Of a DNA stretch of 64,000 nucleotides, positions 1 through 27,187 are shown piece after piece. Source of the stretch: an uncultured delta proteobacterium (GTDB lineage: Bacteria; Myxococcota_A; Polyangia; Polyangiales; Houyiibacteriaceae). The stretch is from contig CAVOVB010000001.1 of assembly GCA_963699755.1 (NCBI GenBank), positions 1,792,001 through 1,856,000 on the forward strand, written 5' to 3'. Below the pieces are notes generated by a model that did no database searches, had not been told where the DNA came from, and saw only the letters and a list, made by a program, of their open reading frames with translations. Numbering within the stretch: the first letter of the stretch is position 1; every line of letters starts with the position of its first letter. Made by a program: the position numbers and the translations under genes.

Positions 1-1726
1 CCCGAAGACCGGCGATCGAAAGGTCGCGATCAAAGAGGTCGTCGGGCACCTGTTCGCGCCGATGCTCTACACGTCGCTGACATCGGCCGCCGGTTTCCTC
101 TCCCTCACGCTGACGCCGATTCCGCCCGTTCGTGTTTTTGGCGTATTCGTTGCGATGGGCATCGGGATTGCATTCGTCTTGACGATTCTCTTCGTACCCG
201 CCTACATCGCTGCGCTGCCCGAGAAGCGCTTGGCGGCACTGCTCTCGGCCAAGCGTAATGCCAGCGAGGGCGGGTTGCTGGGTCGCGTCGTCGAAGCTCT
301 GGGCGCAAAAAGCCTTCGCTTCGCCAAGCCGATTCTCATCGTGACGGTCGCGGCGATCGCGATCAGCGGCTACGGCATTTCGCAGATCAACATCAATGAC
401 AACCCAGTTCGTTGGTTCAAGCCTTCCCACAAGATCCGGGTGGCCGACAGGGTGCTCAACCAAGAGCTTGCCGGAACGTACACCGCCTTCCTCATCATGA
501 AGCAGGATACGGATGCGAAGGCCGAGATCGTCGCGGCCGGTGACAAGGCCCTCGAAGGCGCCAGCGACGCCGTGCGCACGCGCTGGGACGTCGTCAAATC
601 AGACGCGGAAACCGCGGGTAAGGAAGAGACGACGAATGTCTCCGACGCCTTAATCGAAGCGACCTCCGATCTGGTGTTCGACACGAGCGGCGAAGAGTCG
701 GAGCAGTGGCAGGCGGTGCAAACGGCGCTTGAAGAGGCACAGACGGCCAGCAAGACCTTCCAGAATCCGGAGCATCTCGCTTACATCGAGCGACTCCAAG
801 AGGCAGCGGAGGCACTGCCTCTCGTCGGCAAGACGAGCTCGATCGCCGACGTCGTGAAGACCGTCTACCGCGAGCTGATCAGCGGAAAAGACGAAGATTT
901 CCGTATCCCGGGCTCGACCGAGGGCGTTGCGCAGACGCTCCTTCAGTTCCAGTCGTCACACCGACCGAACGATCTCTGGCACCTGGTGAGCCCCGACTAC
1001 CGTGAAAGCGCGATCTGGGTGCAACTCAGGAGCGGTGACAACCAGGACATGATGTCGGTCAAGACCGACCTCGATGCCTTCCTTGCGGCCGACCCACCGC
1101 CTGAGGGCCTTCACGCCCAATGGGCCGGTCTCACGTTTCTCAATACGGTTTGGCAGGAGGAAATGGTCGGCGGGATGCTGGAGAGCTTGATGGGGGCGTT
1201 CGTCATCGTCTTCTTGATGATGGTGATCCTGTTCCGGTCGCCGGTGTACGGCGCGCTGGCGATGGTCCCGCTCACGATCACCATCGTGTTTACGTACGGA
1301 CTGATCGGTCTCGTGGGCAAGGACTACGACATGCCTGTCGCTGTCTTGTCATCGTTGACGCTTGGCCTCTCGGTCGACTTCGCCATTCATTTTCTCGAGC
1401 GTGCTCGCGCCATCCAGGGGGAGACCGGTGACTGGCGCGAGACGATGTCGCGCATGTTCCAAGAGCCGGGGAGGGCGATCATGCGCAATGCAATCGTCAT
1501 CGCCATCGGCTTCCTTCCGCTGCTAGCAGCGCCGCTCGTTCCCTACAACACCGTGGGCTTCCTGATGGCCGCCATCATGGCCGTCTCGAGCGTCGTCACG
1601 GTGATTTTACTGCCCTCGATCATGATGCAAATCCAAAACCGGCTGTCCCCGAAGAAGGAAAGGGCGGCAACGAACGGGGACGAACCATCAGCGCCTCTCG
1701 CGACCAACAAGGAGCAAACAGCATGA
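1..1726 (+). CDS. MMPL/RND-family membrane transporter, 5'-truncated by the window edge
   Basis: Frame is open from base 2 upstream of the ORF-track Met. Multiple TM helices and the RND/MMPL motif LGLSVDFAIHF. Stop overlaps the next start (ATGA). Confidence 0.85.
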   Translation, partial: PKTGDRKVAIKEVVGHLFAPMLYTSLTSAAGFLSLTLTPIPPVRVFGVFVAMGIGIAFVLTILFVPAYIAALPEKRLAALLSAKRNASEGGLLGRVVEALGAKSLRFAKPILIVTVAAIAISGYGISQININDNPVRWFKPSHKIRVADRVLNQELAGTYTAFLIMKQDTDAKAEIVAAGDKALEGASDAVRTRWDVVKSDAETAGKEETTNVSDALIEATSDLVFDTSGEESEQWQAVQTALEEAQTASKTFQNPEHLAYIERLQEAAEALPLVGKTSSIADVVKTVYRELISGKDEDFRIPGSTEGVAQTLLQFQSSHRPNDLWHLVSPDYRESAIWVQLRSGDNQDMMSVKTDLDAFLAADPPPEGLHAQWAGLTFLNTVWQEEMVGGMLESLMGAFVIVFLMMVILFRSPVYGALAMVPLTITIVFTYGLIGLVGKDYDMPVAVLSSLTLGLSVDFAIHFLERARAIQGETGDWRETMSRMFQEPGRAIMRNAIVIAIGFLPLLAAPLVPYNTVGFLMAAIMAVSSVVTVILLPSIMMQIQNRLSPKKERAATNGDEPSAPLATNKEQTA

Positions 1727-2532
1727 AGACCCTCACCAAGACCTGGCTAGCGGCCATTGCCGCAGCGATTCTTCTCTCGACCCCGGCGATATCTGCCGAG
1801 GCGGGAGACCTGAAGGACGCGAGCCAAATCGTAAATCGCACCAACAACGCTCAGTATTACGCGGCGAACGATGGGCGAGCGCTGGTTCGCATGAAGATCG
1901 TCGACAGCAAAGGGCGCTCCCAGCGAAGGCAGTTTGCGGTCCTTCGGCGTGACCTGAAGGACGGCGGCGACCAGAACTACCTCGTCGTCTTCGACCAGCC
2001 GGCTGATGTTCGAAACACGGCGTTCTTGGTGAAGAAGCACGCGAACAAAGACGACGATCGTTGGCTTTATCTCCCGGGTCTCGATCTCGTCAAACGAATC
2101 GCCGCGAGTGATGAGCGCACGAGCTTCGTTGGCACGCACTTCTTCTACGAAGACATCTCCGGGCGGCATCCGGACGAAGACAAGCACGAGCTTCTCGAAA
2201 CGACGGACACCGAGTACGTGGTGAAGAGCACGCCCAAGAGCAGCAAGGGTGTGGAGTTCGCGCACTACACGCTGCGCATCAACAAGAAGACGTTCCTGCC
2301 CAGTACGATCGAGTACGTAAATGCGCAGGGCAAAATCTACCGGCGCATCGAAACCGCCAAGGTGGACACCGTACAAGGGAAGCCGACCATTACGCGCCTC
2401 AAGGTCAGTGACCTGGAGTCGGGTGGATATACGCTGAGCGACGTCAGCAATGTGAGTTACGACCTGGGGATCCCCGACGACATCTTCGTCGAGGGTTCTC
2501 TACGCAACCCGCCCGTGAAGTGGCTTCGCTGA
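1723..2532 (+). CDS. Periplasmic LolA-like outer-membrane lipoprotein-sorting protein
   Basis: Signal peptide. Motifs DDDRWLYLPGLDLVKRI and SFVGTHFFYED are typical of LolA-like partners of MMPL transporters. Confidence 0.8.
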   Translation: MKTLTKTWLAAIAAAILLSTPAISAEAGDLKDASQIVNRTNNAQYYAANDGRALVRMKIVDSKGRSQRRQFAVLRRDLKDGGDQNYLVVFDQPADVRNTAFLVKKHANKDDDRWLYLPGLDLVKRIAASDERTSFVGTHFFYEDISGRHPDEDKHELLETTDTEYVVKSTPKSSKGVEFAHYTLRINKKTFLPSTIEYVNAQGKIYRRIETAKVDTVQGKPTITRLKVSDLESGGYTLSDVSNVSYDLGIPDDIFVEGSLRNPPVKWLR

Positions 2533-2567
2533 GCCCAGCTCGACGACGGGCATGAGGGAGTAGCGAC

Positions 2568-4088
2568 ATGGAACCGACGATTTGTCGAACGAAGCGGTGC
2601 CGCGCTGGCGTCCCATCGCTGAGGTGCTTGGCGGTTGCCTCGTTTGTGTTCGCAGCTCTCGCGTTGGCCTCCGTGGCGTTCGCCCAAGCCGAGGAGACCC
2701 TCGAAGCGGAGGCCGAAGGACCGTTCGATGCAGCGGCAAGCGCAGAGAGTCCCGAAGAGCTGGCTGGCGACGTCGAATCCAACGAAGAGGCCGGCGACGA
2801 CGAGGATTGGGGTGAGTTCGACGACTGGGACGAGGAGAATGGCGGCGATTCCGGCGGCAAATCCGGTGGCAAAGCTTGGGACTTTCAGATCGGCGGCTTC
2901 GTCGAAGGTCTCATCGCACCGCGCGTGGTCCGAAGCAGCGCCAGCGCCAATGAGCTGGTCGCGAACGAGGCGCGCTTTCGGCTGAACCTCGACGCCACCC
3001 ACGAAATCGTTAGCGCGCGATTTCGGGGTGACGTCTTCGCGGATGCCGTCGACCGCCGGATTTGGTTCGACATTCGAGACGCGTCGATCTTCGTCCGTGG
3101 CGGAAGTTGGTTCAGCATGCGGTTTGGCCGACAGGTGCTCACCTGGGGAACGGGCGACTTCCTTTTCTTGAATGACCTCTTTCCGAAGGACTTCAACTCC
3201 TTCTTCATCGGTCGCGCAGACGAATACCTCAAGGCGCCGTCCAACTCGGTGCAGACGACGTTCATGATGAACAAAGTCGGATTGGACTTGATCTGGACCC
3301 CGATTTTCGAGCCGGATCGCTTCATCAACGGGCAGCGTCTGTCGTTCTTCAATCCGCTGGTCGGAGAGATCATCGGCGATCGATCTCTGCTCACACCGAT
3401 CGATCCGGTGTACCCGGAGCAGCGACTGCGAAACGGAACGGTGCACGGCCGTCTTTACGGCACGGCAGGCGCGGTCGAGCTCGCTGCCTATGGCTATGTC
3501 GGCTATTGGATGCAGCCGAATGCCCTTGCGCTGACCGACCCGGTGGACCCGAACACCATCGTGGGGGTGACCTACGCGCGTCTGGCGGTTTACGGCGCGA
3601 GCCTACGCACGCCCCTGTTTGGCGGTCTCTTCAACGTCGAGGGCGCATTCTACGACTCGTACAAGGACCGGGCGGGGACGACTCCTTCGACCCCGAATTC
3701 GCAGTTCCGAGGACTGGTGGGCTATGAGCGCGAGCTCTTCCCCAAGTTCCAAATGGGCTTGCAGTACTATCTCGAGTACACGCTCAAGTACGACGAGCTG
3801 ATCGCGCGCTCGTTCTGGGCTCAATACGAGCAGCACGAATTCCGGCATCTGATCACGCTGCGGCTGAACCAGCTCCTGGTCATGGACAAGCTCGAGCTCT
3901 CGCTCTTCGTGTTCTTCTCGCCGGACGAGCTCGACACCTACATTCGGCCGCGCATCGCCTACAAAATCGTCGAGCCCCTGGCGATGGTCGTTGGCGCGAA
4001 CCTCATGTTCGGACGCGACGACTACACCTTCTTTGGCCAGCTTCAAGAGAACACGAACGTGTACGCGAGGCTTCGTTACTCGTTCTGA
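2568..4088 (+). CDS. Outer-membrane beta-barrel protein associated with the MMPL/LolA-like pair
   Basis: Signal peptide, acidic linker (DDEDWGEFDDWD), GRQVLTWG motif, C-terminal barrel signal YARLRYSF. Start uncertain. Confidence 0.7.
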   Translation: MEPTICRTKRCRAGVPSLRCLAVASFVFAALALASVAFAQAEETLEAEAEGPFDAAASAESPEELAGDVESNEEAGDDEDWGEFDDWDEENGGDSGGKSGGKAWDFQIGGFVEGLIAPRVVRSSASANELVANEARFRLNLDATHEIVSARFRGDVFADAVDRRIWFDIRDASIFVRGGSWFSMRFGRQVLTWGTGDFLFLNDLFPKDFNSFFIGRADEYLKAPSNSVQTTFMMNKVGLDLIWTPIFEPDRFINGQRLSFFNPLVGEIIGDRSLLTPIDPVYPEQRLRNGTVHGRLYGTAGAVELAAYGYVGYWMQPNALALTDPVDPNTIVGVTYARLAVYGASLRTPLFGGLFNVEGAFYDSYKDRAGTTPSTPNSQFRGLVGYERELFPKFQMGLQYYLEYTLKYDELIARSFWAQYEQHEFRHLITLRLNQLLVMDKLELSLFVFFSPDELDTYIRPRIAYKIVEPLAMVVGANLMFGRDDYTFFGQLQENTNVYARLRYSF

Positions 4089-4114
4089 GATTTCAAAACG
4101 AAAGGAACACCGTC

Positions 4115-4315
4115 ATGAACATCGACAAATTGGTTTTTCGAGTTGCAGGGATCATGGTCATAGCCGGCGTGATTCTCGCCTACAGTCACCACATCGCCTG
4201 GCTCATTCTGCCGGCATTCGTCGGCCTGAACATGTTTCAGGCCTCGTTTACCGGCTTCTGCCCGATGGCGACGATTGCCAAGCGTTTCGGGATGAACGAA
4301 GGCAAAGCGTTCTAA
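4115..4315 (+). CDS. DUF2892/YgaP-like small membrane protein
   Basis: Two TM helices, FVGLNMFQASFTGFCP motif, RBS AAGGA upstream. Confidence 0.8.
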   Translation: MNIDKLVFRVAGIMVIAGVILAYSHHIAWLILPAFVGLNMFQASFTGFCPMATIAKRFGMNEGKAF

Positions 4316-4336
4316 CCTGACGACGTCGCGCGATCG

Positions 4337-6259
4337 CTAGTGTCGGCCGTCCGCGTGACAGCTGAGGCAGAAATTCGCGGGCGCGGCGCCCGCCGGATAG
4401 TTGTTCACCTCACGGTGCTTCGCGTCCATCCGGGAACGCGTGTGCTCGCCGTCGTGGCAGCCGACACAGTCGGCGTTCTCACCGCCCACCGGCGAGCCGA
4501 GCGCCGCGTTGTGGCAAGATGCGCAGTCGTTTCGGTATCTCGAGTGCGCTCCTGATTGGATCCGGAAAGCGTTCTCGGGGTGGGTCCCACCGGAGGCGGG
4601 AGTCCAGGCCGCCGTCGTGTGGCAACTCAGGCAGTCGCCGGTGGCGGGGTGCGTTGGCGTCGCGGGGCGCTGCGATTCGTGACAGTCATAGCAGCGCGTT
4701 GGCTCCGGAACATGTGCGAACGTTGCCGGAGTCCAGGTCGGATACGAGTGATGACAGCTGGCACACTCGGGGTCGTACGTTTGCGCATGAAATGGGGTGT
4801 TCGACCTGGGCTCGTTTGCGTGACAGCCAATGCAAGCGGCCGGAAGCGGCGTGTGCGGCGCGACTGGATCGGCGAGTGCCCAGTCGTTCACGACGTGACA
4901 GCCGGCACAGTCCCCAAGCCCCGCGGCCGATTGATGCGTTGGCGTCGCGGGTCTCAGATCACTGTGGCACGCGTTGCAGGCGTTCGGGATCGGCGCGTGC
5001 AAGAAATCAGCCGGCGTCCAACCCGGGTATTGATGGTGACAGCGGGCGCACTCGGGCTGGGCGATCTGGGTGTGGAAGATCGTAGTCTGTCGCGGCTCGT
5101 TTTGGTGACAGGACACGCAAGACGCCGGAAGCGGCGTGTGGAGCGCGACCGGGTCGGCTGTAGCCCAGCTGGTGTGACGATGTGGCAGGAGGCGCAATCG
5201 CCCTGGCTCGCCGCGGTTTGGTGCGTGGCCGTGTTGGGTCTCTGATCGGAGTGACAGTCTACGCAGGTGCCAGGCACTGGCGCGTGGAGGAAATCAGCCG
5301 GTGTCCAACCTGGATATTCATGATGGCAGCTGGCGCACTCGGCGTCGAAGACCTGGGCGTGGAAGATCGTCGGTTGTCGCGGCTCGCTTTGGTGACACGT
5401 CAGGCAGGATGCCGGGAGCGGTGCGTGAAGCGTGGCCGCGTCGGTGACGGCCCAGTCGTCCACGACGTGGCAGCGGGCACAGTCCGCGAGGCCCGCGGCC
5501 GATTGATGCGTTGGCGTCGCGGGTCGCAGATCGCTGTGGCATGCGTTGCAGGCGCTGGGCACTGGCGCGTGTAGAAAGTCTGCTGGTGTCCAACCCGGGT
5601 AGCTCCGGTGGCAGCTGGCGCATTCGGCCTCGAACACCTGAGTGTGGAAGATGTTCTGCGGTTGCGGGTCGTCTTGGTGACAGGTCAGGCAGGATGCCGG
5701 AAGTGGCGTGTGCAGCTCCGCCGGGTCGGTGAGGGTCCAGTCGGTGACGATATGACACGAGGCGCAGTCGCCCAGTCCTTGCGGGGATTGGTGCGTGGGC
5801 GTGTCAGGTCTTCCATCCGCGTGACAGTCTAGGCAGGTGCGCGGCACCGGCGCGTGGAGGAAGTTCGCCTGTGTCCAATCCGGATAGCTCCGGTGACAGC
5901 TGGCGCACTCGGTCTCGACAATTTGCGGCATGGAAGCTCGTCTGTGGTCGCGTCTCGTTTTCGTGACACGTCACGCACGATGCCGGAAGCGGCGTATGAA
6001 TTGTGGTGGAGACCGCGGGGATCCACTCGCGTTCGGTGTGGCAATCCTGGCATGTGCTCGGGAGGGAGTCGTGCGGTGGGTTGATCGCTGCCTTGAGGTC
6101 CGCCGCGTGACACGTGACGCATTCGGCTTGACGGACCGTTCGCCGGCTCATGCTCGATGCTGCCGGCCCCACTGCATCGCCACGCCCATCGATACGGCTG
6201 GCGCTGATTGCGACGGCCGCCGCAATGTGACCAGACAGGCGACGGCAGTTAACCCTCAT
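4337..6259 (-). CDS. 25-heme c-type cytochrome lipoprotein with five tandem tetraheme repeats (frameshifted, reconstructed)
   Basis: Joining ORFs 5804..6259 (3 CxxCH), 4954..5931 (11) and 4337..5197 (11) across a +1 insertion at ~5928 and a +2 AC duplication at ~5175 restores exact repeat spacing. Further +1 indels at ~6140-6200 hide a lipoprotein-like N-terminus (..C-SGAGSIEHEPA). Confidence 0.85.
4620..6000 (-). repeat. Five ~285-bp (95-aa) intragenic tandem repeats, four hemes each
   Basis: Unit HTPLPAS-CxxCH-x18-CxxCH-x19-CxxCH-x18-CxxCH, with the last unit slightly shorter. Near-identical DNA at 4921 and 5493 is 572 bp apart (2x285+2). Confidence 0.9.
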
Positions 6260-6438
6260 GGCGTATATGATAAGCCGATCAATTCACCCTGTCAGGTTAA
6301 TTCAGCGGCCGCGTGAGACCGCAGCCTAGAGGCCAAAATAGCCTCAAAAACCTTTTCTTTCCAGGATGTTAGTAGCCTTGCCAAACCGGGGGACCCGCTA
6401 CCGGGGTCCGATCTAGGATGCTACCTTTCGAGGAATCC

Positions 6439-7142
6439 ATGATCCTTCCCGGCCGAGCGGCAATACGAGCTCTGATCTTCGGAGCGTCGGGCGCGGTGCT
6501 GCTCAGCGGAGCGTGCACCGGCGGGACGCAGGACCACGATCGTCTGCAGGTTCGAGGCGCCGATTGCATCGTCTGTCATTCCGACGATGTTCAGCATGCG
6601 CTTGAACCCACCTCATGAAGGGCTTCCCGGACACCTGCGGAACCTGCCACGGTCAAGAAGCCTGGTCGCCTGCCGCGTTCACGCACACCTGGCCGCTCGT
6701 CGGCGCGCACGAGATGCTCGCCTGCAGCGCATGCCACGTCGGGGATCCACCGGTCTACCAAGGCACGCCCACACTCTGCGTCGGCTGCCATCAGGACGAT
6801 TACGACAACAGCCCCTTCCCAGGTCACGCCGACTTCCCAACGACCTGCGAGAACTGCCACACGACGACCGCCTGGACGCCCGCGGTTGGGGGTACACACC
6901 CCGAGAACGCGTTCCCGATTCAAAATGGCGCACACTCTCCCTATCGCGACGATTGCGTGTCCTGCCACAACCCGGATCTTGGCTCACCCGTGAATGGAGA
7001 AAACGCGGACTGCGTCGGCTGTCACGACGGCGAGCACACGCGAGCCTCGATGGATCCCAAGCATCGCGAAGAGCCCGATTATCCACAGGGTGCGGCGCCG
7101 CCCAACTTCTGCTTGGATTGTCACGCGGACGGTCGCAACTAG
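6439..7142 (+). CDS. Octaheme c-type cytochrome lipoprotein, short paralog of the 25-heme protein (frameshifted)
   Basis: RBS GAGGA, lipobox-like LSGAC, CIVCH, then two +1 insertions (~6601, ~6620) restoring ALNPPHEGFPDT, then 7 more CxxCH. The C-terminal ~95 aa closely match the 25-heme protein (THPENAF..GENADCVGCHDGEHTR..NFCLxCHADGR). Confidence 0.85.
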
Positions 7143-8203
7143 GCTTCTCCGTACTTCGTGACGATCTCGATCCCGATGTCCTGAAGCAGGGCAGTTGGGG
7201 CCGTTCCGCCGATCTGGATTACGACCGCATCGTTTTCGATGGAGAGCGGCTCTTTGGCGCCGTTGCGCAAGATGACGCGGTCCTCGAAGATCTCTTCGAC
7301 CTGCGTGCCCATGAGAGCCGTCAGCCGGCCGGCCTCGATCTCGGCTTCGATTCGCTTTCGGTTCGGCTGACGGCACCTCGCGAAGTTGTTCTTTCGATAG
7401 CTGATCGTCACCGACGCGCAGTTGCCGCCGTCGACCAACGCAAACGCCGACTCGACCGCTGCATTGCCTCCACCGACGACCAAGACGTGCTTGTCTTGAA
7501 ATACCTCGGGTTCGATCACTCGGTAGGCGACTTTGGATCGCTCCTCGCCGGGCACGTCGAGCTTGCGCGGAGAGCCTCTGCGACCGAGGGCCAACAGCAC
7601 GTTTGCAGCCTTGAAGACGCCGCCGGTCGAGGACACCCGCCAATCGCCATCCTGACCGCGCTCGATCTTCTCGACGAGCTCTCCGACCGCGACCTGCAGG
7701 CCGGTTTTCTCACTGATGTCTTGCCACAGCTCGACGAGTTGCTCCTTGCTCATCTTCCTCTTGGACACGCGCCCGTAGATCGGGAAGTCCAAGAAGCCCG
7801 TCATGACGACCTTCGCGCGCGGGTAGTGCGTGATCGTGCCGCCAAACGCTTCACGCTCGAGCAAGAGCACCCGCAACCCCGCTTCCATCAATCGGAGCGT
7901 TGCGCTCGTCCCGGCTGGGCCCGCGCCGATGACCAAGGCATCGAGCGAATCGCCAGCGGCTCTGCGATTCCCTGCGATGATGTGGTCGGCTGCCTGCCTG
8001 CCTTGGGACACGGCGTTGCGGATCAAACCCATTCCGCCGAGCTCGCCGACGATGTACACCCCCGGCTGGTTGGTCTGAAAATCAGGATCGACGTTCGGGA
8101 GCTCGAGCCCGCGCTTGGCCGTGCCAAACACCAAGGTGATCGCTTGAACCGGACAAGCCGACGCGCAGGCCCCGTGTCCGATGCAGCCGAGTGGGTTGGT
8201 GAA
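7139..8203 (-). CDS. Ferredoxin-fused FAD/NAD(P)H oxidoreductase (thioredoxin-reductase-like), N-terminus missing
   Basis: GAGPAG and GGGNAA Rossmann motifs. The frame continues upstream of the ORF-track start as FTNPLGCIGHGACASACPVQAITLVFGT (Fe-S motif) to a TAG near 8204, with no start codon. Confidence 0.8.
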   Translation of the reverse strand, partial: FTNPLGCIGHGACASACPVQAITLVFGTAKRGLELPNVDPDFQTNQPGVYIVGELGGMGLIRNAVSQGRQAADHIIAGNRRAAGDSLDALVIGAGPAGTSATLRLMEAGLRVLLLEREAFGGTITHYPRAKVVMTGFLDFPIYGRVSKRKMSKEQLVELWQDISEKTGLQVAVGELVEKIERGQDGDWRVSSTGGVFKAANVLLALGRRGSPRKLDVPGEERSKVAYRVIEPEVFQDKHVLVVGGGNAAVESAFALVDGGNCASVTISYRKNNFARCRQPNRKRIEAEIEAGRLTALMGTQVEEIFEDRVILRNGAKEPLSIENDAVVIQIGGTAPTALLQDIGIEIVTKYGEA

Positions 8204-8705
8204 CTATGAGACGCTCCGGCCGAGCGGCCTCATCGGGCACGGCTACGGCATCGTCGGAACGATCCTGATTTTGGCCAACCTCCTTTACCTGGCGCGACGC
8301 AGGCTTGCGCGCTGGTCGCTCGGGTCGATGAAGACCTGGCTCAACCTGCACGTATTCACCGGCCTCTTCGGCTCGCTCCTGATCCTCTTCCACTCGGCGT
8401 TCCAGTTCCGGACGCCCATCGCGCTAGTCACGGCGATCAGTCTTGGCGTGGTCGTGGTGACGGGGATCGCTGGCCGCTATCTCTATGCGCTGACACCGCG
8501 TCCCGATCGCCAGGCGCTCGACGGAGCGCTCTCTTCGCTCGACGAGTTGGCCCCCGGATGCAGCGCGCGCGTCTATCAGGCCCTCGCGATCCATCAGGTG
8601 ACGCAGGTCGACACCCATCACTGGTTGATCGCCAAGCTCGCGGCCATTCCGAAGTGGGCGAGTGAAGCGCGATCCCGCGGTTTTCTGGTCAGCTATGCCA
8701 TCGAA
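8203..8705 (+). pseudogene. Internal fragment of a His-containing membrane protein (LRPSG-IGHGYG type), truncated at both ends
   Basis: YETLRPSGLIGHGYGIVGTILILANLLY..WLNLHVFTG..LFHSAF: three TM helices with His residues. No credible start. The ORF-track tail after ~8705 is the off-frame shadow of a cytochrome. Confidence 0.65.
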
Positions 8706-9064
8706 GCTGCCATAGCCCGTCGAAAAAGGATCGGCTCAGCGGGCGAGGAGCGACGTACCGAGGGGCGCCGCGTGACTGCGCTGGTTGCCACAGGGACATT
8801 CACGCTGGGCAGTTTCGGCTCAGCGCGCCCGAGCGCGCGTGTGACGCCTGTCACGCCACCGAGTCGTTCGCAATTGAGGCTTTCGCCCACGAGGAGCTCG
8901 CCGACTATCCGCTCGAAGGCGCTCACGCCGAGCTCGAGTGCGTCGGCTGTCACCAAAAAGAGCGCCTCCGAAGCGGGGTGCAAGCGGTGAGATACCGGCT
9001 CGGGTACCGCGAGTGCGCCGATTGCCATGGCAACCCTCACGCGCGAAGAAAGGGGCAGCGATGA
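8705..9064 (+). pseudogene. C-terminal fragment of a multiheme cytochrome c (4 CxxCH plus a partial motif), not in the ORF track
   Basis: Frame reads SCHSPSKKDRLSGRGATYRGAPRD-CAGCH-..-CDACH-..YPLEGAHAELE-CVGCH-..-CADCH-GNPHARRKGQR-stop. TGA 9062-9064 overlaps the ATG at 9061. Confidence 0.85.
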
Positions 9065-9996
9065 ACCGCGCGCTGTTCATCGTCCTGTTCATCGTTTTGG
9101 CCGTCGTCGCTCTCGCCGGCATCGCCGGACTGGCCATCGCCAAAGACCCCGAGCGGAACGCTGCGCGAGCCAGGGCCGCCAGCCACAACTCGATTACCGA
9201 AGGGCTCGATTGCGGCAACTGTCACACGCCGGCGAGCTGGAAGATGATGGGCGGCAAGTCAGGCGAAGGCTTCGACCATTCCCGCACCGGCTTCCCCCTC
9301 ACGGGGAGACACGAGCCCGCTGCCTGCAATCAGTGTCACAGCGGCGAGCGGCGAGTGACGAGGGAGTGCGGAGCATGTCACGAAAATCCACACCAAAAAC
9401 GATTGAGCGGTCGATGCGACAGCTGCCATTCGTCTCGACGATGGAATGACCTCGAGGCGTTCGAAATCCATCGCCGAACGCGATTTCCGCTGACGGGTAT
9501 GCACGCTCTTGCTGCTTGCACCGAGTGCCATCTTCGCAACGGGGAGAGGCAATGGACGACGGTTCAAAGCGACTGCTTCTCCTGTCACGCGGCAGAGTAT
9601 CTGGATCCGAGCGTTCATCCGAATCACCGAGGCACGGGTACGTCGCCGCACTGTCCCACAGGATTGTTCGCAGTGTCATACGGCGCGCGCGTGGAGCCCC
9701 GCGTTCATCGACCCGACGAACATTGCACCGCTCGCGTCGACCGGCGCCGTCAGCAAGGGGATCGGCGGCATGGTCGATGCCCGCCCGATCACGACAGATA
9801 TTTTCCGGTTTCTCGCGGGCCGCACCGCGGGGCTCCGTGCAATAGCTGCCACACCTCGGCTCGAACGCCTCGCCTGGTCCGCTGCACGGGGTGCCATGCG
9901 CACAACGCGGTCAAGCTCCAGCAGCAGCATGGAAGGCGCGTGTCGAGCAGCGGCGTCTCGTGCCTTGGCTGCCACCCCGGAGGAACCGCGCGATGA
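9061..9996 (+). CDS. Periplasmic decaheme cytochrome c with FPLTGxH repeats (two compensating frameshifts)
   Basis: Signal peptide MNRALFIVLF.., 6 CxxCH, then CSQCH in an alternate frame between ~9650 and ~9780, then 3 more CxxCH. Confidence 0.85.
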   Translation: MNRALFIVLFIVLAVVALAGIAGLAIAKDPERNAARARAASHNSITEGLDCGNCHTPASWKMMGGKSGEGFDHSRTGFPLTGRHEPAACNQCHSGERRVTRECGACHENPHQKRLSGRCDSCHSSRRWNDLEAFEIHRRTRFPLTGMHALAACTECHLRNGERQWTTVQSDCFSCHAAEYLDPSVHPNHRGTGTSPHCPTGLFAVSYGARVEPRVHRPDEHCTARVDRRRQQGDRRHGRCPPDHDRYFPVSRGPHRGAPCNSCHTSARTPRLVRCTGCHAHNAVKLQQQHGRRVSSSGVSCLGCHPGGTAR

Positions 9997-11519
9997 CGCG
10001 GACCTGGTTCGGGAGCGCTGATTGCATGCACGGCCCTGTTCGCCGCAACTTCGGCGGCCAACGCAGCATCTGGTCGCAGAGTGAGCGTCAAAGTCGTCGA
10101 CATTGCGGGCGGACGCGCCTATCTGACGCCAGGCGAAGCCGCAGGGGTCGCGAGTAGGCTCCGTCGTGGTTCTTCGTGATCGTCGCTATCGCGTGGTTGG
10201 GGCTACGGGCAAGCACGCGGTCATCGAAATGAAAGGACGTGAGCTTCGAGTTGGGCATGACCGGCCGAGCAGAGGCCAAGCTCAAACGAAGCGCCAGCGC
10301 ATCCCTTCCCAAACCCAAGCCACTTACGGCGTACGAGAGCCAATGGCCAGAGCCGGTGCTTCCCGCCACGCGGCAGACGCCCGAGTACGTGCCGCTTGGT
10401 ACTTCCTCCGGCGGGGATCGAATCGACCTAGCGCTTTCGACCGATGTCGGTGGGACGATTGCGCTGAGCGACGGGGAGTCCTTTGGCCGCGCATCGCTGC
10501 GCGCGCGGCTCCACGCCGAGCCTTTTGCCCAACCCGTGTCCTTCGACGTCGGCGTCGGACGACTCGATGGGCTTCGTGTGCGCTCCCCATCATGGGGTGG
10601 CTTCACCATCGGCGCGTTCGGTGGCACGGTGCCCGACCCGCTCGACTATTTGCCGACTCTGGATACGACGCGCTTTGGGGCAGAGCTTGCATACCAAAAC
10701 GAATCGCTCGATGCCCAGCCGTTCGTGGGCCTGTCCGTCCACGCTTCGACGTTCATGGGCGACATCGACGAGCGACGTCTCAATCTGGAGTTCGACGTCT
10801 TTCCGGGAACCGGCCACGTCGCAGGGCACATCGAGCTCTCCATGCACGACGAGGTCAACCCTTGGCAGGCGCCGCGCTTCGAAGTGAGCGCCGCTGGCCT
10901 CGATGCATCGATTCGTGTCGGCATCTTTCAGCTTGCTGGCCGTTTCGACATGCGGTTGCCCGAACGCTCGCTCTGGCTCACCTCGTACCTGCCCTTGGGG
11001 TACTTGTGCAACACCGTTCCTGACCCAGCCGCTAGCACCGGGGACGAGGTCGTGTGTCTCAACAGCAATGACCAGCGATACTTCGGTGGCTTGGATGCGA
11101 GCTTCAGTTTTTCACGTTTCGCACTGCATGCGGGGGCCAACATCGTGCACAGCGAGACCGCCGCTGAATTCGAGCAAATCTCTGGCTACCTGCAGGCCCG
11201 CATCTTGCGTATCGCAGACATTGCATGGGCGGACGTTTCGGTGGCTGCCTACGCACGCTCGTTCGTATCCGACTATGCGGCGCGTCTCGGAGCAGGGGTG
11301 GACATCCGGCGCATCGGTGAAATATCCGCGTACTATCGGGTCTCGCTCAATCAGTATGTGGCGTCCCCGACGAACTGGTTGCAGCATTCGGCCGGCGGTA
11401 TCTTGTATTTCGCCCTCGGGCACGACCTCGACCTCGGTGTGCGCGTCGACGGAATCTTCGGCGAAGATGTCAGCGTGCTCGTGCTCGGCTCGAATCTGAC
11501 TTGGCGGCCGTCCTGGTGA
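9993..11519 (+). CDS. Outer-membrane beta-barrel (putative cytochrome-associated porin), frameshifted near the 5' end
   Basis: ATG overlaps the decaheme stop. Removing +1 bases at ~10014, ~10150 and ~10255 gives signal peptide MTRTWFGALIACTALFAATSAANA joined to ORF 10239..11519. Amphipathic strands and C-terminal LTWRPSW. Confidence 0.7.
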
Positions 11520-11558
11520 CCGTTTCGAAACGCGGTCCAGCCCCCGCCCAGCCCAGCG

Positions 11559-21817: not shown

Positions 21818-21979
21818 GGCCCCCGTCGCGACGGTAGGACGCGCAAAATTTGCGCCACGCACGACCGGGCGCCGGTCGGCCTTGCAGTTTCGGTCGCCCC
21901 CAGTAGCATCCCGCCCAATCGTCTGGAGACCGGGGTCTCTGAAGAAGCATTCGCCAATCTTTGAGGAGAGGAGGTGACG

Positions 21980-22675
21980 ATGCTGTCTAAGTCCGCTGCG
22001 CGCGCGTTCTTTTTGTCTGGAACGTTACTTTTCAGCGCGGTTTTCATTTGGCTCACGGTCGACACGTTCCAACGCATCCCAGCTCAGACCAACTCGGATG
22101 AACTGACCGAATCGGTGGCACGCGGGAAGCAGCTCTGGGAGGAGAACAACTGCATGGGCTGTCACACGCTGCTCGGTGAGGGGGCGTACTACGCGCCCGA
22201 GCTGACGCGTGTGTACGACCGTCGTGGGCCAGCCTTCATCGCTCAGATGCTCCGGGACCCCGAAGCAGTCTACCCAGGGCAGCGTCGGATGGTGAAGTAC
22301 GACTTCAGCGAAGCCCAGATCGACGACATGAACGCGTTCTTCGAGTGGATCGGCCGGATGGACCTCAACGGCTTTCCTCCGAAACCCACAATCGGTTTGG
22401 CGGGAGCGGCTCCCATCCCCATCCCGGGCGGCGAGCGACCGGAGATCTTCTCTCAGGTGTGCACGGCATGTCACTCCCTCGGCGGGATTGGCGGCGCCAT
22501 TGGGCCACCACTCGACTTCGTGGGCGACCGCTTCGATCGAGGCTACCTGATGAGGTGGATCACCGATCCGCAAGCGGTCAAGCCCGGCACGACGATGCCG
22601 ACGCTCGCGCTCACCGAGCAGCAACGCAATGAAGTCGTCATCTTTCTCTCCAAGCAACGCGAGGGCGGGCTATGA
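21980..22675 (+). CDS. norC: Nitric oxide reductase cytochrome c subunit, diheme form
   Basis: N-terminal TM, NCMGCHTLLGEGAYYAPELT, plus a second cytochrome c domain (CTACH..KPGTTMP). Confidence 0.92.
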   Translation: MLSKSAARAFFLSGTLLFSAVFIWLTVDTFQRIPAQTNSDELTESVARGKQLWEENNCMGCHTLLGEGAYYAPELTRVYDRRGPAFIAQMLRDPEAVYPGQRRMVKYDFSEAQIDDMNAFFEWIGRMDLNGFPPKPTIGLAGAAPIPIPGGERPEIFSQVCTACHSLGGIGGAIGPPLDFVGDRFDRGYLMRWITDPQAVKPGTTMPTLALTEQQRNEVVIFLSKQREGGL

Positions 22676-24039
22676 AGTACGAATCGCAAAAAGTCGCGTA
22701 CTGGTTTTTCGCGACCTGCATGCTCTTGCTGAGCTTGCAGCTGGTTTACGGTTTCATCATGGCATTTGCACACGTTGGCTACGACGGGCTGCATCCCTGG
22801 GTTCCCTTCAACGTCGCGCGCGCCTCGCACAACAATCTCTTGGTCATGTGGCTCTTGGCGGGCTTCATGGGCGCCGCGTACTACATCATTCCGGATGAGT
22901 GTGAGCGGCCGCTCTACTGGCCCAAGCTCGCGTACGTGCAGTTGATCGCGTTCGTGATCGTCGGCGTGACTGCGATCATCGGTTTCCACTTCAACTGGTG
23001 GGAGGGGCGCAAGTTCCTCGAGATTCCGCGTCCGCTCGACTACCTCGTCGTCGTCGACGTGCTTTTGTTCGTCGCCAACATCGGCATGACCATTTGGAAG
23101 GCCCCCAAGATGACCACGACTTCGATCGTGCTCTTCTTCGGTCTCCTGATGGCGGCCGTCCTCTACCTGCCGGGGATGATCCCGACCGACCACCAGACAC
23201 ACGATGCGTTCTGGCGCTGGTGGGTCGTTCACCTCTGGGTCGAAGGCGTCTGGGAGCTCATCATGGGCGGCATTCTTGCGTATCTGTTGATCCGGCTCAC
23301 CGGCGTCGACCGCGAGATCGTCGAGAAGTGGCTCTATGTCATCGTCGGCTTCACGTTCTTGTCGGGCATACTCGGCACGGGGCACCACTACTACTTCATC
23401 GGCACGCCGAACTACTGGCTCTGGGTCGGCGGCATCTTCAGCGCCCTCGAGCCGCTCGCGTTCCTAGGCATGGCGATTTACGGCCTCGCACTGGCGAAGA
23501 AGGGCGGTCGAAACCATCCAAATCGAATCGCTTTGTTCTGGACGGTGGGTACCTGCGTCATGTCGTTCGTTGGAGCCGGCTTCCTCGGCATCGCACACAC
23601 GCTTCCGCAGGTGAACCTGTACACGCACGGCACACTGGTGACGGCGATGCACGGTCACATGGCCTTCTGGGGCGCCTACGCGATGTTGGTCCTGGCCATC
23701 ATCACCTACGCTATGCCGCAGCTGACCGGTCGCAAGCTCTTCGATACACCGAGCGCGACCTATGCGTTTTGGTCGGCCAACATCGGCATGACTGCCATGA
23801 CGGTCGCGTTCGGCATTGCCGGCGTGGCCCAGGTCTACCTCGAGCGTCGCGCGGGCATGGAGTTCCTCGACGTTCAGCGCGAGCTCCAGGTCCACTTCAT
23901 TGGGCTCATCTTGGCGGCGACTCTCTTCACGTCGGGCATCCTCGCGTTCATCTACAATTTCATTCGCTACGGTTGGCCGGTAGGTGACGTCGAAGAGCCC
24001 ATCCCCACGGGCACCAGGGCAGCGGTCCCGGCGGAATGA
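22672..24039 (+). CDS. norB: Nitric oxide reductase catalytic subunit
   Basis: HLWVEGVWE, GTGHHYY, SALEP and HGHMAFWGAY motifs. Confidence 0.97.
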   Translation: MKYESQKVAYWFFATCMLLLSLQLVYGFIMAFAHVGYDGLHPWVPFNVARASHNNLLVMWLLAGFMGAAYYIIPDECERPLYWPKLAYVQLIAFVIVGVTAIIGFHFNWWEGRKFLEIPRPLDYLVVVDVLLFVANIGMTIWKAPKMTTTSIVLFFGLLMAAVLYLPGMIPTDHQTHDAFWRWWVVHLWVEGVWELIMGGILAYLLIRLTGVDREIVEKWLYVIVGFTFLSGILGTGHHYYFIGTPNYWLWVGGIFSALEPLAFLGMAIYGLALAKKGGRNHPNRIALFWTVGTCVMSFVGAGFLGIAHTLPQVNLYTHGTLVTAMHGHMAFWGAYAMLVLAIITYAMPQLTGRKLFDTPSATYAFWSANIGMTAMTVAFGIAGVAQVYLERRAGMEFLDVQRELQVHFIGLILAATLFTSGILAFIYNFIRYGWPVGDVEEPIPTGTRAAVPAE

Positions 24040-24815
24040 GGGCGACCCCGCCCTGGTATCGTCCCGTCGGCCGAGAGGTCGAGCTCTTCGAGCACGCTCA
24101 TCGCCAAAGGCTACCGCTTTTGCTCGCCGGGCCGACCGGCTGTGGCAAGACGCGGTTCGTCGAGGCGATGGCGGCCCAACTCGACTTGCCCCTGATCACA
24201 GTGGCCTGCCACGACGAGACCTCGTCGATCGATTTGGTCGGACGCTTCTTGATCAGGGGCGCCGAAACGGTTTGGCAAGACGGCCCAGTCACCCGGGCGG
24301 TGCGAGCGGGCGCCGTTCTCTACCTCGACGAGATCATCGAGGCGCGAGAGGACGTGATTGTGGTCCTACACTCGCTCACCGATCATCGGCGCGAGCTCTA
24401 CATCGACCGGCTGGACGAAACCTTGTTCGCCCCTGAGGGTTTCATGGTCGTCGCCAGCTTCAATCCAGGCTATGCGCGGGGCTTCAAAGAGCTCCGGCCG
24501 TCGACCCGGCAGCGCTTCGTCGTGCAGCGGTTCTCGTATCCCGAAGCGAGGGTCGAAACCGAGATCGTGGCGCACGAAGCCAAGCTCGAAGACGGCCCGG
24601 CCAAGCGACTCGTCGAGTTTGCGAGCAAGGTGCGCGCCATGGAGGAGCTCCAACTCGCGGAGACGGTCTCGACTCGACTGCTGGTGACGGCCGGCAAGCT
24701 GATCGCGAGCGGCGTGGCGCCCCGGGTTGCCTGCAACGCAGCGGTCGTGCAACCGATCACCGATGACCGTGCCCAGTTGGAGGCCTTGCAGGATTTGGCC
24801 AACCTGATGTTCTGA
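24036..24815 (+). CDS. norQ: NorQ/NirQ/CbbQ AAA+ ATPase
   Basis: Walker A GPTGCGKT, LYLDEI, SFNPGY, LRPSTRQRF, STRLL. Confidence 0.95.
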   Translation: MRATPPWYRPVGREVELFEHAHRQRLPLLLAGPTGCGKTRFVEAMAAQLDLPLITVACHDETSSIDLVGRFLIRGAETVWQDGPVTRAVRAGAVLYLDEIIEAREDVIVVLHSLTDHRRELYIDRLDETLFAPEGFMVVASFNPGYARGFKELRPSTRQRFVVQRFSYPEARVETEIVAHEAKLEDGPAKRLVEFASKVRAMEELQLAETVSTRLLVTAGKLIASGVAPRVACNAAVVQPITDDRAQLEALQDLANLMF

Positions 24816-26764
24816 TGGAATGGGATCAGCGAGCGTTTGCTTGGCTCTACCGATCGTTTCGGCGGGTGGCGGGCAAGAGCCCCGCTACCGGGGTCGAGTC
24901 CCCGTTGGAGTCGCTGACAGCCCGCTTCGAGACCTTGAGCAACTTGCTCACCGGCGCGAAGTGGGACGTCGTTTCTGGCAAAGCGCTGGGCGGCGCCGGG
25001 CCCGGACGGCTGGTTCTACCTGAGAGCGTCGCCTGGCTTGCGGACCCGGAGGAGCAGGCATCTTTCTATCTCTACCGTGTCGTCGTCGGGGTAACCGCGT
25101 CGGAGCTCGGGTTCGTTGCCGACGAAGCCTGGTCGAGTCAAAGGCGCGCCTTGGCGATGCTGATCGCGATTCCAAGCATCCACCGGGAGATCGAGGCTCG
25201 TTATCCCGGGGCCGAGTCGCTCGTCGATCGCGCTGCCGCAACTGCGGGCGGCCAGTTCCCATTCGATGAGCGCGTCGCCGCGAACCGTTGCTTCTCGAAT
25301 GCGTGTCGAACAATTTTGCGGCGTGACTCGGTGCCATTGAGCGAGGACTCCGGAGCGCGGGTCGTAGAGCAGGATCTCGTTGATGCGGCAATACGTCCTC
25401 ACGACCAACGGAGTCTTTGCCAAGCGTCATCCGACTTCGAACGCGCACTCCAGAGGCTATCGAAGAGACGAGCCCAAGGTGAGTATCGATCACCGTGGGG
25501 GCAGCTCCTGCCGCCTTCCAAGCCCTGGAATGTCTCCCTCGAGCCCCCCGAAGACCCACACAGCAACTTGCCAAGCGGTACCGAGCGAAAGATGCGGCGC
25601 CGGCCCAGCGAGGTGGAGTACGTCGACCTCGAATCGCAAAAGGACAAAGACAATCCGCTGGTTCATTCGTTCGAGAAGGTGCACACCGCCACCGAATATC
25701 AGAGCGGCCGAAAGCAGCTCGATGGCTCCGATCAGCTCGCCCAACAAGAGGAGGCGCTCGAGGAGCTCGAGCTCAGCAAGCTCACGCGGACCGCCGAAAC
25801 CGCGCAATCGGTCTACCGCGCCGATCTGCGGGCCGGTTTGCATACCGCGGACCTCGACGAAGAGCCTTCTTCGACTCGCGCCCATCGGTATCCCGAATGG
25901 AATTTCAAGCATCGCGCGTACCGCGACGACTGGTGCACGGTCAACGAGCAGATCTCACCGCCAAGTGGCTCGGCATCGAGCGTCGCTGCGGCGAGCCGCC
26001 GACTGCACGGGGAAGTGCTGCGTCTTCAGGCGGAGCTCAAACGTCTCGAGCTCGAGCGTCGGTGGCGCAACCGTCAGCTCGACGGCAGCGAAATCGACAT
26101 CGACGCGCTCGTGGACCGGCAGGCGACCCTGATGGCGGGCCGGCACCCTGACCCACGGATCTACGTCCGTAGGAAGGTTCACGACTCCGAGCTCGCCATG
26201 CTGATCTTGGTTGACGCGAGCCTCTCGAGCGATTCCTGGGTTTCGGGGAAACGGATCTTCGATGTCGTCCGCGATTCGACTCAGGTGCTCGTCGAGTCGT
26301 TCGAGCCGACGTCCGCCAAGCTTTCGATCTGCGCGTTTTACAGCAACACCAGGCGCGACTGCCGATTCTTGGTCGCCAAGGGATTCGATGATTCCACGCG
26401 TCTGGGGCTGCAACGGCTCCATGGGATTGCGCCCGCGGGCTACACGCGGATCGGTCCAGCCGTTCGGCATGCCCTCGAGGTGCTGGACCGGAGCGGTGCG
26501 CGCCGCCGCCTCATCTTGCTCCTCACCGATGCGAAACCCACGGACTACGACCACTACGAGGGCCACTACGGCGTCGAAGACGTGCGCCAGTCGCTTCGAG
26601 AGGCAGGGGAGCAGGGGGTTCATTGCCTCGCGCTCGCCGTTCGCGACAAAGGGGAAGCGTACCTCACGCACATGTTTGGACCGCACGGCTGGATGCTCTT
26701 GCCCGACGTGCATTCGCTTCCGGGGCGTTTCGTCTCGGTGGCCAGCGACTTCTTACGAAGCTAA
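24815..26764 (+). CDS. norD: NorD vWA-domain NOR maturation protein
   Basis: YPEW, MIDAS DASLSS, YTRIGPAVRH, LLTDAKPTDYDHYEG. Follows norQ. Confidence 0.92.
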   Translation: MEWDQRAFAWLYRSFRRVAGKSPATGVESPLESLTARFETLSNLLTGAKWDVVSGKALGGAGPGRLVLPESVAWLADPEEQASFYLYRVVVGVTASELGFVADEAWSSQRRALAMLIAIPSIHREIEARYPGAESLVDRAAATAGGQFPFDERVAANRCFSNACRTILRRDSVPLSEDSGARVVEQDLVDAAIRPHDQRSLCQASSDFERALQRLSKRRAQGEYRSPWGQLLPPSKPWNVSLEPPEDPHSNLPSGTERKMRRRPSEVEYVDLESQKDKDNPLVHSFEKVHTATEYQSGRKQLDGSDQLAQQEEALEELELSKLTRTAETAQSVYRADLRAGLHTADLDEEPSSTRAHRYPEWNFKHRAYRDDWCTVNEQISPPSGSASSVAAASRRLHGEVLRLQAELKRLELERRWRNRQLDGSEIDIDALVDRQATLMAGRHPDPRIYVRRKVHDSELAMLILVDASLSSDSWVSGKRIFDVVRDSTQVLVESFEPTSAKLSICAFYSNTRRDCRFLVAKGFDDSTRLGLQRLHGIAPAGYTRIGPAVRHALEVLDRSGARRRLILLLTDAKPTDYDHYEGHYGVEDVRQSLREAGEQGVHCLALAVRDKGEAYLTHMFGPHGWMLLPDVHSLPGRFVSVASDFLRS

Positions 26765-26773
26765 GAGCCTGCA

Positions 26774-27187
26774 ATGAAGCTCTTCACCGAGACGATCACG
26801 CTTTGCACGACGAGCGAGCGCGAGCTCGTCGACTTCACTCTCGAGGCCCAACGACTCGTTCGTACGTCTGGTGTCCAGGAGGGCCTCTGCGCCCTGTACG
26901 CTCACGGCGCCACAGCCGCGTTGATGATTCAAGAGAACGACGACCCCAACATCAGGAGAGACGTCGTGAGCTGCCTCGACAAGCTCGTCCCCAAAGGTGT
27001 CTGGCTCCACGATCGGATCGATGGCAACGGGGCCTCACACATTCAGGCGGGCATCATTGGCCCGAGCGAGTCGATCCCAATTCGAGGGGGCAAGCTCGAT
27101 CTGTCGACGTGGCAGAACGTCTTTTTTTGCGAGCTCGACGGTCCCCGCCGAAAGCGGACGGTGGCAGTTACGATCTTCGGAACTTGA
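26774..27187 (+). CDS. yjbQ: YjbQ/UPF0047 family protein
   Basis: QENDDP, HDRIDGNGASH, WQNVFFCELDGPR. Confidence 0.88.
   Translation: MKLFTETITLCTTSERELVDFTLEAQRLVRTSGVQEGLCALYAHGATAALMIQENDDPNIRRDVVSCLDKLVPKGVWLHDRIDGNGASHIQAGIIGPSESIPIRGGKLDLSTWQNVFFCELDGPRRKRTVAVTIFGT

Follow-up and report, generated by a model that had tools for sequence, protein, structure and literature searches.

Does the cluster of multiheme cytochrome genes in this stretch of DNA encode a new electron conduit across the cell envelope, and in which direction would electrons run through it? The stretch, called the window below, comprises 64,000 nucleotides of an uncultured delta proteobacterium (GenBank assembly GCA_963699755.1, contig CAVOVB010000001.1, positions 1,792,001 to 1,856,000), and the locus occupies window positions 4337-11519. 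An earlier note on the window had taken it for a distinct, undescribed system. That view is not upheld: the four core genes, encoding an inner-membrane protein (IMP), a 20-heme cytochrome, a 10-heme cytochrome and an outer-membrane beta-barrel, match on sequence the order, sizes and motifs of PCC3, a porin-cytochrome cluster published by He et al. in 2017 (PMC5566968) and treated in the accessible part of Hoover et al. (PMC9900912). The window appears to hold a broken copy of a PCC3-type cluster with a flavin/iron-sulfur partner, and we lean towards an intact system that would draw on cytoplasmic NADPH and deliver electrons to the cell surface, bypassing quinones.

The six-frame translation of the locus contains 47 CxxCH heme motifs, the number given in the earlier note: 25 on the minus strand and 8 + 4 + 10 on the plus strand. 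The chance expectation is a mean of 0.5 and a maximum of 3 (200 first-order Markov resamples). The features are as follows.

4314..11556, no strand: accessory island of 9.67 kb in its intact form, with a YgaP-like membrane gene on one side and, on the other, a gene which, from its sequence, we take to be wax-ester-synthase-like.
4337..6259, minus strand: lipoprotein cytochrome c built of repeats, with 25 motifs here, 29 in relatives that have the gene intact, and five small insertions.
6439..7142, plus strand: 8-heme lipoprotein cytochrome c, two +1 insertions.
7139..8202, minus strand: membrane-anchored 2x[Fe-S] / FAD-NAD(P)H oxidoreductase (the flavoprotein) of predicted TrxR-like FNR/YpdA fold; 5' 84 codons gone, 503-bp gap.
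8203..8704, plus strand: middle part of a PCC3-type IMP, spanning roughly residues 52-218 of its 295, predicted diheme b.
8705..9064, plus strand: last 119 aa, with 4 hemes, of the 20-heme cytochrome of the periplasm; 1509 bp absent upstream.
9061..9996, plus strand: 10-heme cytochrome c, predicted to associate with the barrel (position of the PCC3 "extracellular" multiheme cytochrome), frameshifted.
9993..11519, plus strand: outer-membrane beta-barrel with a small N-terminal beta domain, three +1 insertions, 153-bp gap.

Indel repair, on which the earlier note relied, is not enough by itself to restore the locus. Compared with its closest relative (locus L019, 95.2% identical) it has 13 separate +1/+2 insertions and one cluster of net +3, and it also lacks 285 bp (at about 5688), 503 bp (8202/8203), 1509 bp (8704/8705) and 153 bp (10546/10547). 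The same four gaps appear in comparison with C7, a second copy in the same bin that carries an intact locus. The intact order is a 29-heme lipoprotein, an 8-heme lipoprotein and a 439-aa flavoprotein, and divergently the 295-aa IMP, the 20-heme and 10-heme cytochromes and the 558-aa barrel, with 67 hemes in all. The cysteines of both lipoprotein signals are conserved among the orthologues compared. ATGA overlaps join the 20-heme and 10-heme genes (9061-9064) and the 10-heme and barrel genes (9993-9996). All seven pieces named in the earlier note are present, but its inventory was wrong as reconstructed, since three gene-breaking deletions were overlooked and parts were miscounted. The lipoprotein with 25 motifs has 29 hemes in L019 and C7. 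What had been taken for a 4-heme fragment corresponds to the end of the intact 20-heme cytochrome, residues 432-550, with 87% identity. The IMP has lost TM1 and TM5 (transmembrane segments, TM) together with two of its four histidines, and residues 1-84 of the flavoprotein, with the membrane anchor and the first Fe-S motif, are missing.

The published PCC3 clusters come from Alpha-, Beta- and Gammaproteobacteria and consist of four genes, proposed to feed quinone; their IMP has about 300 aa, five TM segments, two WX3HX13H motifs and SGXXG on TM4 (PMC5566968). The intact IMP of our locus has five hydrophobic segments, two WX3HX13H motifs and TGIAG on TM4. The motif pair is present in 58 of 60 IMP homologues and [ST]GxxG in all 60, with T in the clade of the window; residues H101, H115, H266 and H280 are invariant in 59 IMP sequences. 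The IMP profile finds the IMP of a PCC3-like locus, L063, with E 5e-17. This Myxococcota locus (L063:1741-10316) is closer to classical PCC3, with an IMP, 21-heme and 27-heme cytochromes, a barrel bearing TPR, and a Sel1 + ankyrin protein. The IMP has no Pfam match to PF01794, the ferric-reductase transmembrane fold. Fold searches with a fused homologue were dominated by its FAD domain, and the only PDB matches of the IMP profile were designed helical repeat proteins, which we judged spurious.

The flavoprotein matches Fer4 and Pyr_redox_3 in Pfam. Its best NCBIfam family is YpdA, below cut-off (133.7 versus 339.9 bits). The fold of a fused homologue matches YpdA (Z 21.6, rmsd 4.2, 263 aligned) and B. 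subtilis FNR (Z 19.1, rmsd 4.2, 256 aligned). An N-terminal anchor is followed by the ferredoxin motifs CxxSxxC (44 of 49 flavoproteins) and CxxHxxC (49 of 49). The NADPH-type motif GGGx[SA]A, mostly continued by SYR, occurs in all 49, and none of them has CxxC in the FAD part.

The flavoprotein gene lies within about 10 kb of the IMP gene in 51 of 60 loci. In seven of 40 selected loci the two proteins are fused, three times with the IMP first and four times with the flavoprotein first. Fusions make up 56 (52 + 4) of the best 150 representatives at 50% identity, a count that favours fusions because the query itself was one. The single-chain model of a natural fusion has pLDDT 88.2 and pTM 0.81, and under the topology deduced from charge and hydropathy either order leaves the enzyme cytoplasmic. 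Given the conserved adjacency and the fusions in both orders, cytoplasmic NAD(P)H is likely linked through the flavoprotein to the membrane protein, which is how the earlier note had read it. A mixed alignment of fusions and separate domains was misaligned and was discarded. In five representatives (P0316, P0339, P0344, P0374, P0399) the flavoprotein stands in one chain with 20-34 heme motifs, by fusion or by gene-calling read-through.

The same observations bear on the published proposal, based on resemblance to domains of cytochrome b and ferric reductases, that the IMP exchanges electrons with quinone (PMC5566968). The flavoprotein would then be an accessory input, or would reduce quinone through the same membrane protein. 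No flavoprotein was found in the fetched stretch of eight of the 40 loci, as quinone exchange would allow. However, five of these eight (L054-L058) have a long N-terminal region with Fe-S motifs on the IMP itself, confirmed by Pfam for L054, and in three of the five, examined closely, an Fe-S dicluster region is fused to the IMP. The fusions with the flavoprotein in both orders also speak against quinone exchange. Expression data point both ways. In the available part of PMC8788666, both PCC3 clusters of Sideroxydans ES-1 are down-regulated on Fe(II) versus thiosulfate. In the available part of a preprint (10.1101/2025.02.27.639646), which calls the function of PCC3 untested, the PCC3 membrane-protein gene of Sideroxydans CL21 rose with iron oxidation. 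On balance we consider quinone exchange unlikely, but less so than the other alternatives discussed below.

Several points weigh against a PCC3-type cluster with a dedicated NADPH input. The CL21 result is one of them. In ES-1 a protein whose peptides match the flavoprotein family, Slit_0866, adjoins Slit_0867-0870, in keeping with the NAD(P)H link, but likeness to the ES-1 proteins was judged from peptide matches by eye. The second ES-1 cluster is flanked by an HD-domain protein (Slit_1445) and an aldolase (Slit_1450) and has no flavoprotein neighbour, as quinone exchange would also allow; Slit_0866 could act on it in trans. The barrel profile matches the TPR-bearing porin of L063 only with E 0.023 and a probability of 2%. 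Heme b binding, topology and direction are our own deductions. As regards searches for ES-1 counterparts, no Gallionellaceae stood among the homologues listed, and plasmid searches with two IMPs gave weak or no matches. A published statement linking the flavoprotein to PCC3 was not found in the literature searched; subscription papers and image-only or bioRxiv supplements, which lay outside the search, may bear on this. In the abstract and those sections that were covered, a 2026 peat preprint (EET1-4) names no inner-membrane module of this kind.

The preferred scheme, electron export from NADPH, can be written as a path. NADPH would reduce the FAD of the flavoprotein, and electrons would pass to two Fe-S clusters (unusual in having Ser and His at ligand positions), to a heme b on the cytoplasmic side (H101/H266), to a second on the periplasmic side (H115/H280), along the 20-heme periplasmic wire to the 10-heme protein at the barrel, and from there to outside acceptors. 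The 8- and 29-heme lipoproteins would likely be optional terminal cytochromes. The membrane potential favours movement of electrons from inside to outside and opposes the reverse. This is why we favour the outward direction, and why the system would spend rather than conserve proton-motive force, as a reductant exporter or redox valve. It would be suited to redox balancing or to the reduction of metals or humics. Such outward flow would run opposite to the published model, where iron supplies electrons that enter the cell.

In the opposite direction, surface cytochromes would oxidise a strong external donor and the flavoprotein would reduce NAD(P)+ for biosynthesis. Enzymes of the FNR type are reversible, as is well established. 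However, against the membrane potential the donor would have to lie near or below about -470 mV, and the cluster is also found in Emticicia, which we take to be an aerobic heterotroph. Inward uptake is therefore very improbable in our view, even though PCC3 is present in iron oxidisers (PMC5566968).

A broader proposal, to which we give a little less than even weight, is that PCC3 would be a widespread electron pump of NOX-like type, driven by NADPH and coupled to a porin-cytochrome conduit, and not a quinone-feeding iron oxidase. With the same reserve, it would offer Gram-negative cells a quinone-independent route from pyridine nucleotide to the outside, assisted by the membrane potential and reaching acceptors of very low potential. 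Equally tentatively, the cluster may spread between Myxococcota, Bacteroidota and Proteobacteria, either on plasmids or in the form of an island.

At the outer membrane, the porin-cytochrome architecture seen by the earlier note is supported. The AlphaFold2 model of an intact barrel orthologue (pLDDT 82.8) has 22 strands from residue 143. Its fold matches have Z 15-19, its size is like that of TonB-dependent barrels, and no plug-sized domain is modelled. The barrel belongs to no Pfam or NCBIfam family, and its profile finds no PDB sequence at E 1. The decaheme cytochrome matches no NCBIfam family, DmsE/MtrA included, at E 0.01, in agreement with the claim that no MtrA-type similarity is seen; MtrB is absent from the matches listed for the barrel fold, which excludes nothing. 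The complex prediction suggested in the earlier note was run for the barrel and the decaheme. It scored 0.47 against 0.00 for the best control, the runs agreed in at least 34% of contacts, and partner pLDDT was at least 57. Such a score lends weak support to binding, and its weakness counts against the proposed path: in the benchmark, 18 of the 157 solved complexes passed at 0.60 or lower, and so did the only two mismatches (out of 215) that passed. The 10-heme protein, weakly predicted to bind the barrel, is a candidate for the extracellular cytochrome of PCC3.

The 20-heme cytochrome is built of repeats, with 27.5 aa per heme, and its FDHxxTGF-type repeat is also found in one listed Slit_1447 peptide. 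The 10-heme cytochrome has 30.9 aa per heme, and its counterparts in homologous loci have 6-42 hemes. The C-terminal part of the 29-heme lipoprotein is paralogous to the 8-heme lipoprotein (74% DNA identity between 6855-7142 and 4337-4624); this repeat-built 25/29-heme protein is likely a terminal cytochrome at the surface or in the periplasm. No CymA/NapC gene was found in the island. Elsewhere in the genome (L002:4996-18198, at C1:613-626 kb) there is a cluster with a NapC/NirT-like protein, a barrel-like gene, 13- and 23-heme cytochromes, a Rieske protein with cytochrome b and a 9-heme protein, and 7-, 8- and 10-heme proteins. It looks like a quinol-linked conduit in the same genome as the putative NAD(P)H-linked one.

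The locus is an accessory island. Short-read contigs join position 4313 to 11557, skipping it entirely, and a 9669-bp skip of L019 occurs in three of four short-read runs. The flanks are adjacent, with no island between them, in congeners G327, G312, G303, G304 and G319, and the membrane-protein gene was found in seven of 14 congeners sampled. Of 301 Myxococcota genomes searched, 87 have an IMP homologue; the labels borne by relatives are Polyangiales, Myxococcales, Sandaracinaceae and Deltaproteobacteria. The gene neighbourhood is conserved, as a synteny check in these relatives demonstrated. Among 20 close loci the flavoprotein is present in 19, the porin in 17, the large cytochrome in 19 and all four markers in 16. 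The corresponding numbers for 40 selected Myxococcota loci are 32, 26, 35 and 24; these loci were picked across the score range, several are cut by contig ends, and divergent porins were missed. A plasmid-borne copy exists in a cultured organism, Emticicia oligotrophica DSM 17448: pEMTOL02 carries the same five genes, the cytochromes among them having 23 and 40 hemes, together with ccsA. Variants of the island that include a 13-14-heme lipoprotein were observed in L003 (5263-7730), L009, L012, L017 and L021, and L003 has a second copy of the flavoprotein.

The breaks are very probably due to misassembly of this copy, likely through consensus errors in a thinly covered accessory island. We read them so because there are no new stops, dN/dS (the ratio of nonsynonymous to synonymous substitution rates) is purifying, the flanks are clean, and short-read contigs carry the missing DNA without the joints. 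The island has no new stop codon in 2314 codons. Six of its seven genes have dN/dS 0.07-0.19; the row for the wax-ester-synthase flank, misframed with stops in the reference, was excluded from this comparison. The damage is restricted to the island, gap openings in the flanks versus L019 numbering 0 in 4.3 kb and 2 in 5.5 kb. Contigs of four short-read runs are free of eight of the insertions, as judged from 12 listed rows, and contigs of two runs contain the 503 letters between 8202 and 8203. In comparison with L019, pieces from the four runs (one study) cover the stretches missing from the window at 98-100% likeness, and none of their contigs forms a joint across 503, 1509 or 153 bp. These runs are perhaps related to the source sample, none holding half or more of the sampled words of the window. 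Holders of such words are sediment, marine sediment and estuary metagenomes, with no RNA dataset among those listed.

The other possibility is that the island is really decaying into pseudogenes in the source strain. All damage does fall within a dispensable island without which half of the congeners live, and the source population, given the low word counts, was perhaps never read. The 285-bp skip is present in one short-read contig of low depth (X2, depth 3.4), and the 25-heme form may thus be a natural repeat variant. However, all 13 of the single small events are insertions, nonsense changes are missing and selection is purifying, and the three gene-breaking gaps are unjoined in the four runs. 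In addition, a pattern of 503 lost, 502 kept and 1509 (3 x 503) lost would fit a polisher using 500-base windows, the default of Racon, if one was applied to this assembly. Real decay is thus quite unlikely. Two observations run counter to misassembly: the 119-codon piece of the 20-heme gene has dN/dS 0.77, with few changes, and C1 compared with C7 shows no clear insertion bias over 294 kb (384 versus 337). A genome-wide insertion bias in C1 was looked for and not found. An inversion at 8202, suggested by the strand switch, was also rejected, as the genes are divergent in all relatives and the 503 bp are simply absent.

The bin is 100% complete and 9.04% contaminated. C7 runs parallel to C1:1.58-1.95 Mb (about 83% identity over 309 kb, syntenic), and the two have a common 5.5-kb end that is 99.8% identical. 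C7 is likely a co-binned relative or an assembly bubble, in line with the 9% contamination. Other indel hot spots of C1 relative to C7 lie at about 1,600,000 and 1,870,000, the second coinciding with a clean 2988-bp gap. The window exemplifies how a genome bin with long contigs can contain a mangled accessory island.

Directly left of the island (window 1-4315) are genes for an RND/MMPL transporter, a LolA-like protein, a 506-aa protein without a Pfam match and the YgaP-like membrane protein. A cluster presumably of the norCBQD-like nitric oxide reductase type, judging by its translations, lies at 21839-27095; a copy is found at C1:400929-406177 (88.6%), and it is unmatched on C7.

PCC3 is counted as a candidate marker of iron oxidation, with its function and direction untested. 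From the NAD(P)H flavoprotein, which is conserved and in many cases fused, outward flow is predicted. If this is true, iron-oxidation calls made from PCC3 in genomes will have to be revised, and extracellular electron transfer has a further input route that differs from CymA, ImcH and Cbc. Judged from sequence, the PCC3-type core is already known, and what would be new is the flavin/iron-sulfur partner and the Myxococcota variant with its extra lipoprotein cytochromes.

Among known systems, NADPH oxidases (NOX) and ferric reductases (FRE, MsrQ) resemble the putative input half: two HX13H helices, two predicted b hemes and, on the cytoplasmic side, an FAD/NAD(P)H input that is either fused or a protein of its own. 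Here, however, the input enzyme is TrxR-like and brings an Fe-S domain and an anchor with it, the output is a multiheme wire, and PF01794 is not matched. TrxR-like FNR and YpdA (Bdr) share with the flavoprotein the FAD and NADPH Rossmann motifs, the TrxR fold (Z 19-22) and the lack of a redox CxxC, but they differ from it in the N-terminal anchor and ferredoxin domain (CxxSxxC, CxxHxxC), and it scores below the YpdA cut-off. MtrAB/MtoAB likewise have a decaheme gene adjoining, and translationally coupled to, a beta-barrel gene, whereas our decaheme matches no DmsE/MtrA family and our barrel no MtrB/PioB family. PCC4 (PMC5566968) has the same histidine signature in its IMP, and Fe-S and redox genes beside that gene were already noted there; its periplasmic cytochromes have 4, 5 and 10 hemes and none is extracellular, in contrast to the 20 + 10 hemes here.

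PCC3 itself remains the closest system. The four genes follow the order IMP, periplasmic multiheme cytochrome, second multiheme cytochrome, porin, which is that of Slit_1446-1449; for ES-1 it is given as IMP, periplasmic, extracellular, porin in the accessible part of PMC12016527. The IMPs agree in length (295 aa here), in their five hydrophobic segments and in their two WX3HX13H motifs. The periplasmic cytochrome of PCC3 has about 21 hemes with 22-39 aa per heme, and the second one 10-35 or more (PMC5566968); the periplasmic cytochrome here has 20, and both values of aa per heme fall within the published range. The porin of L. cholodnii PCC3 is given with 22 TM regions, equal to the 22 modelled strands of our barrel. 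The differences are the host (Myxococcota, with Polyangiales-labelled relatives), the divergent flavoprotein gene, the extra 8- and 29-heme lipoproteins, TGxxG on TM4, and a barrel of 558 aa, compared with 744 and 862 aa, that has no TPR match.

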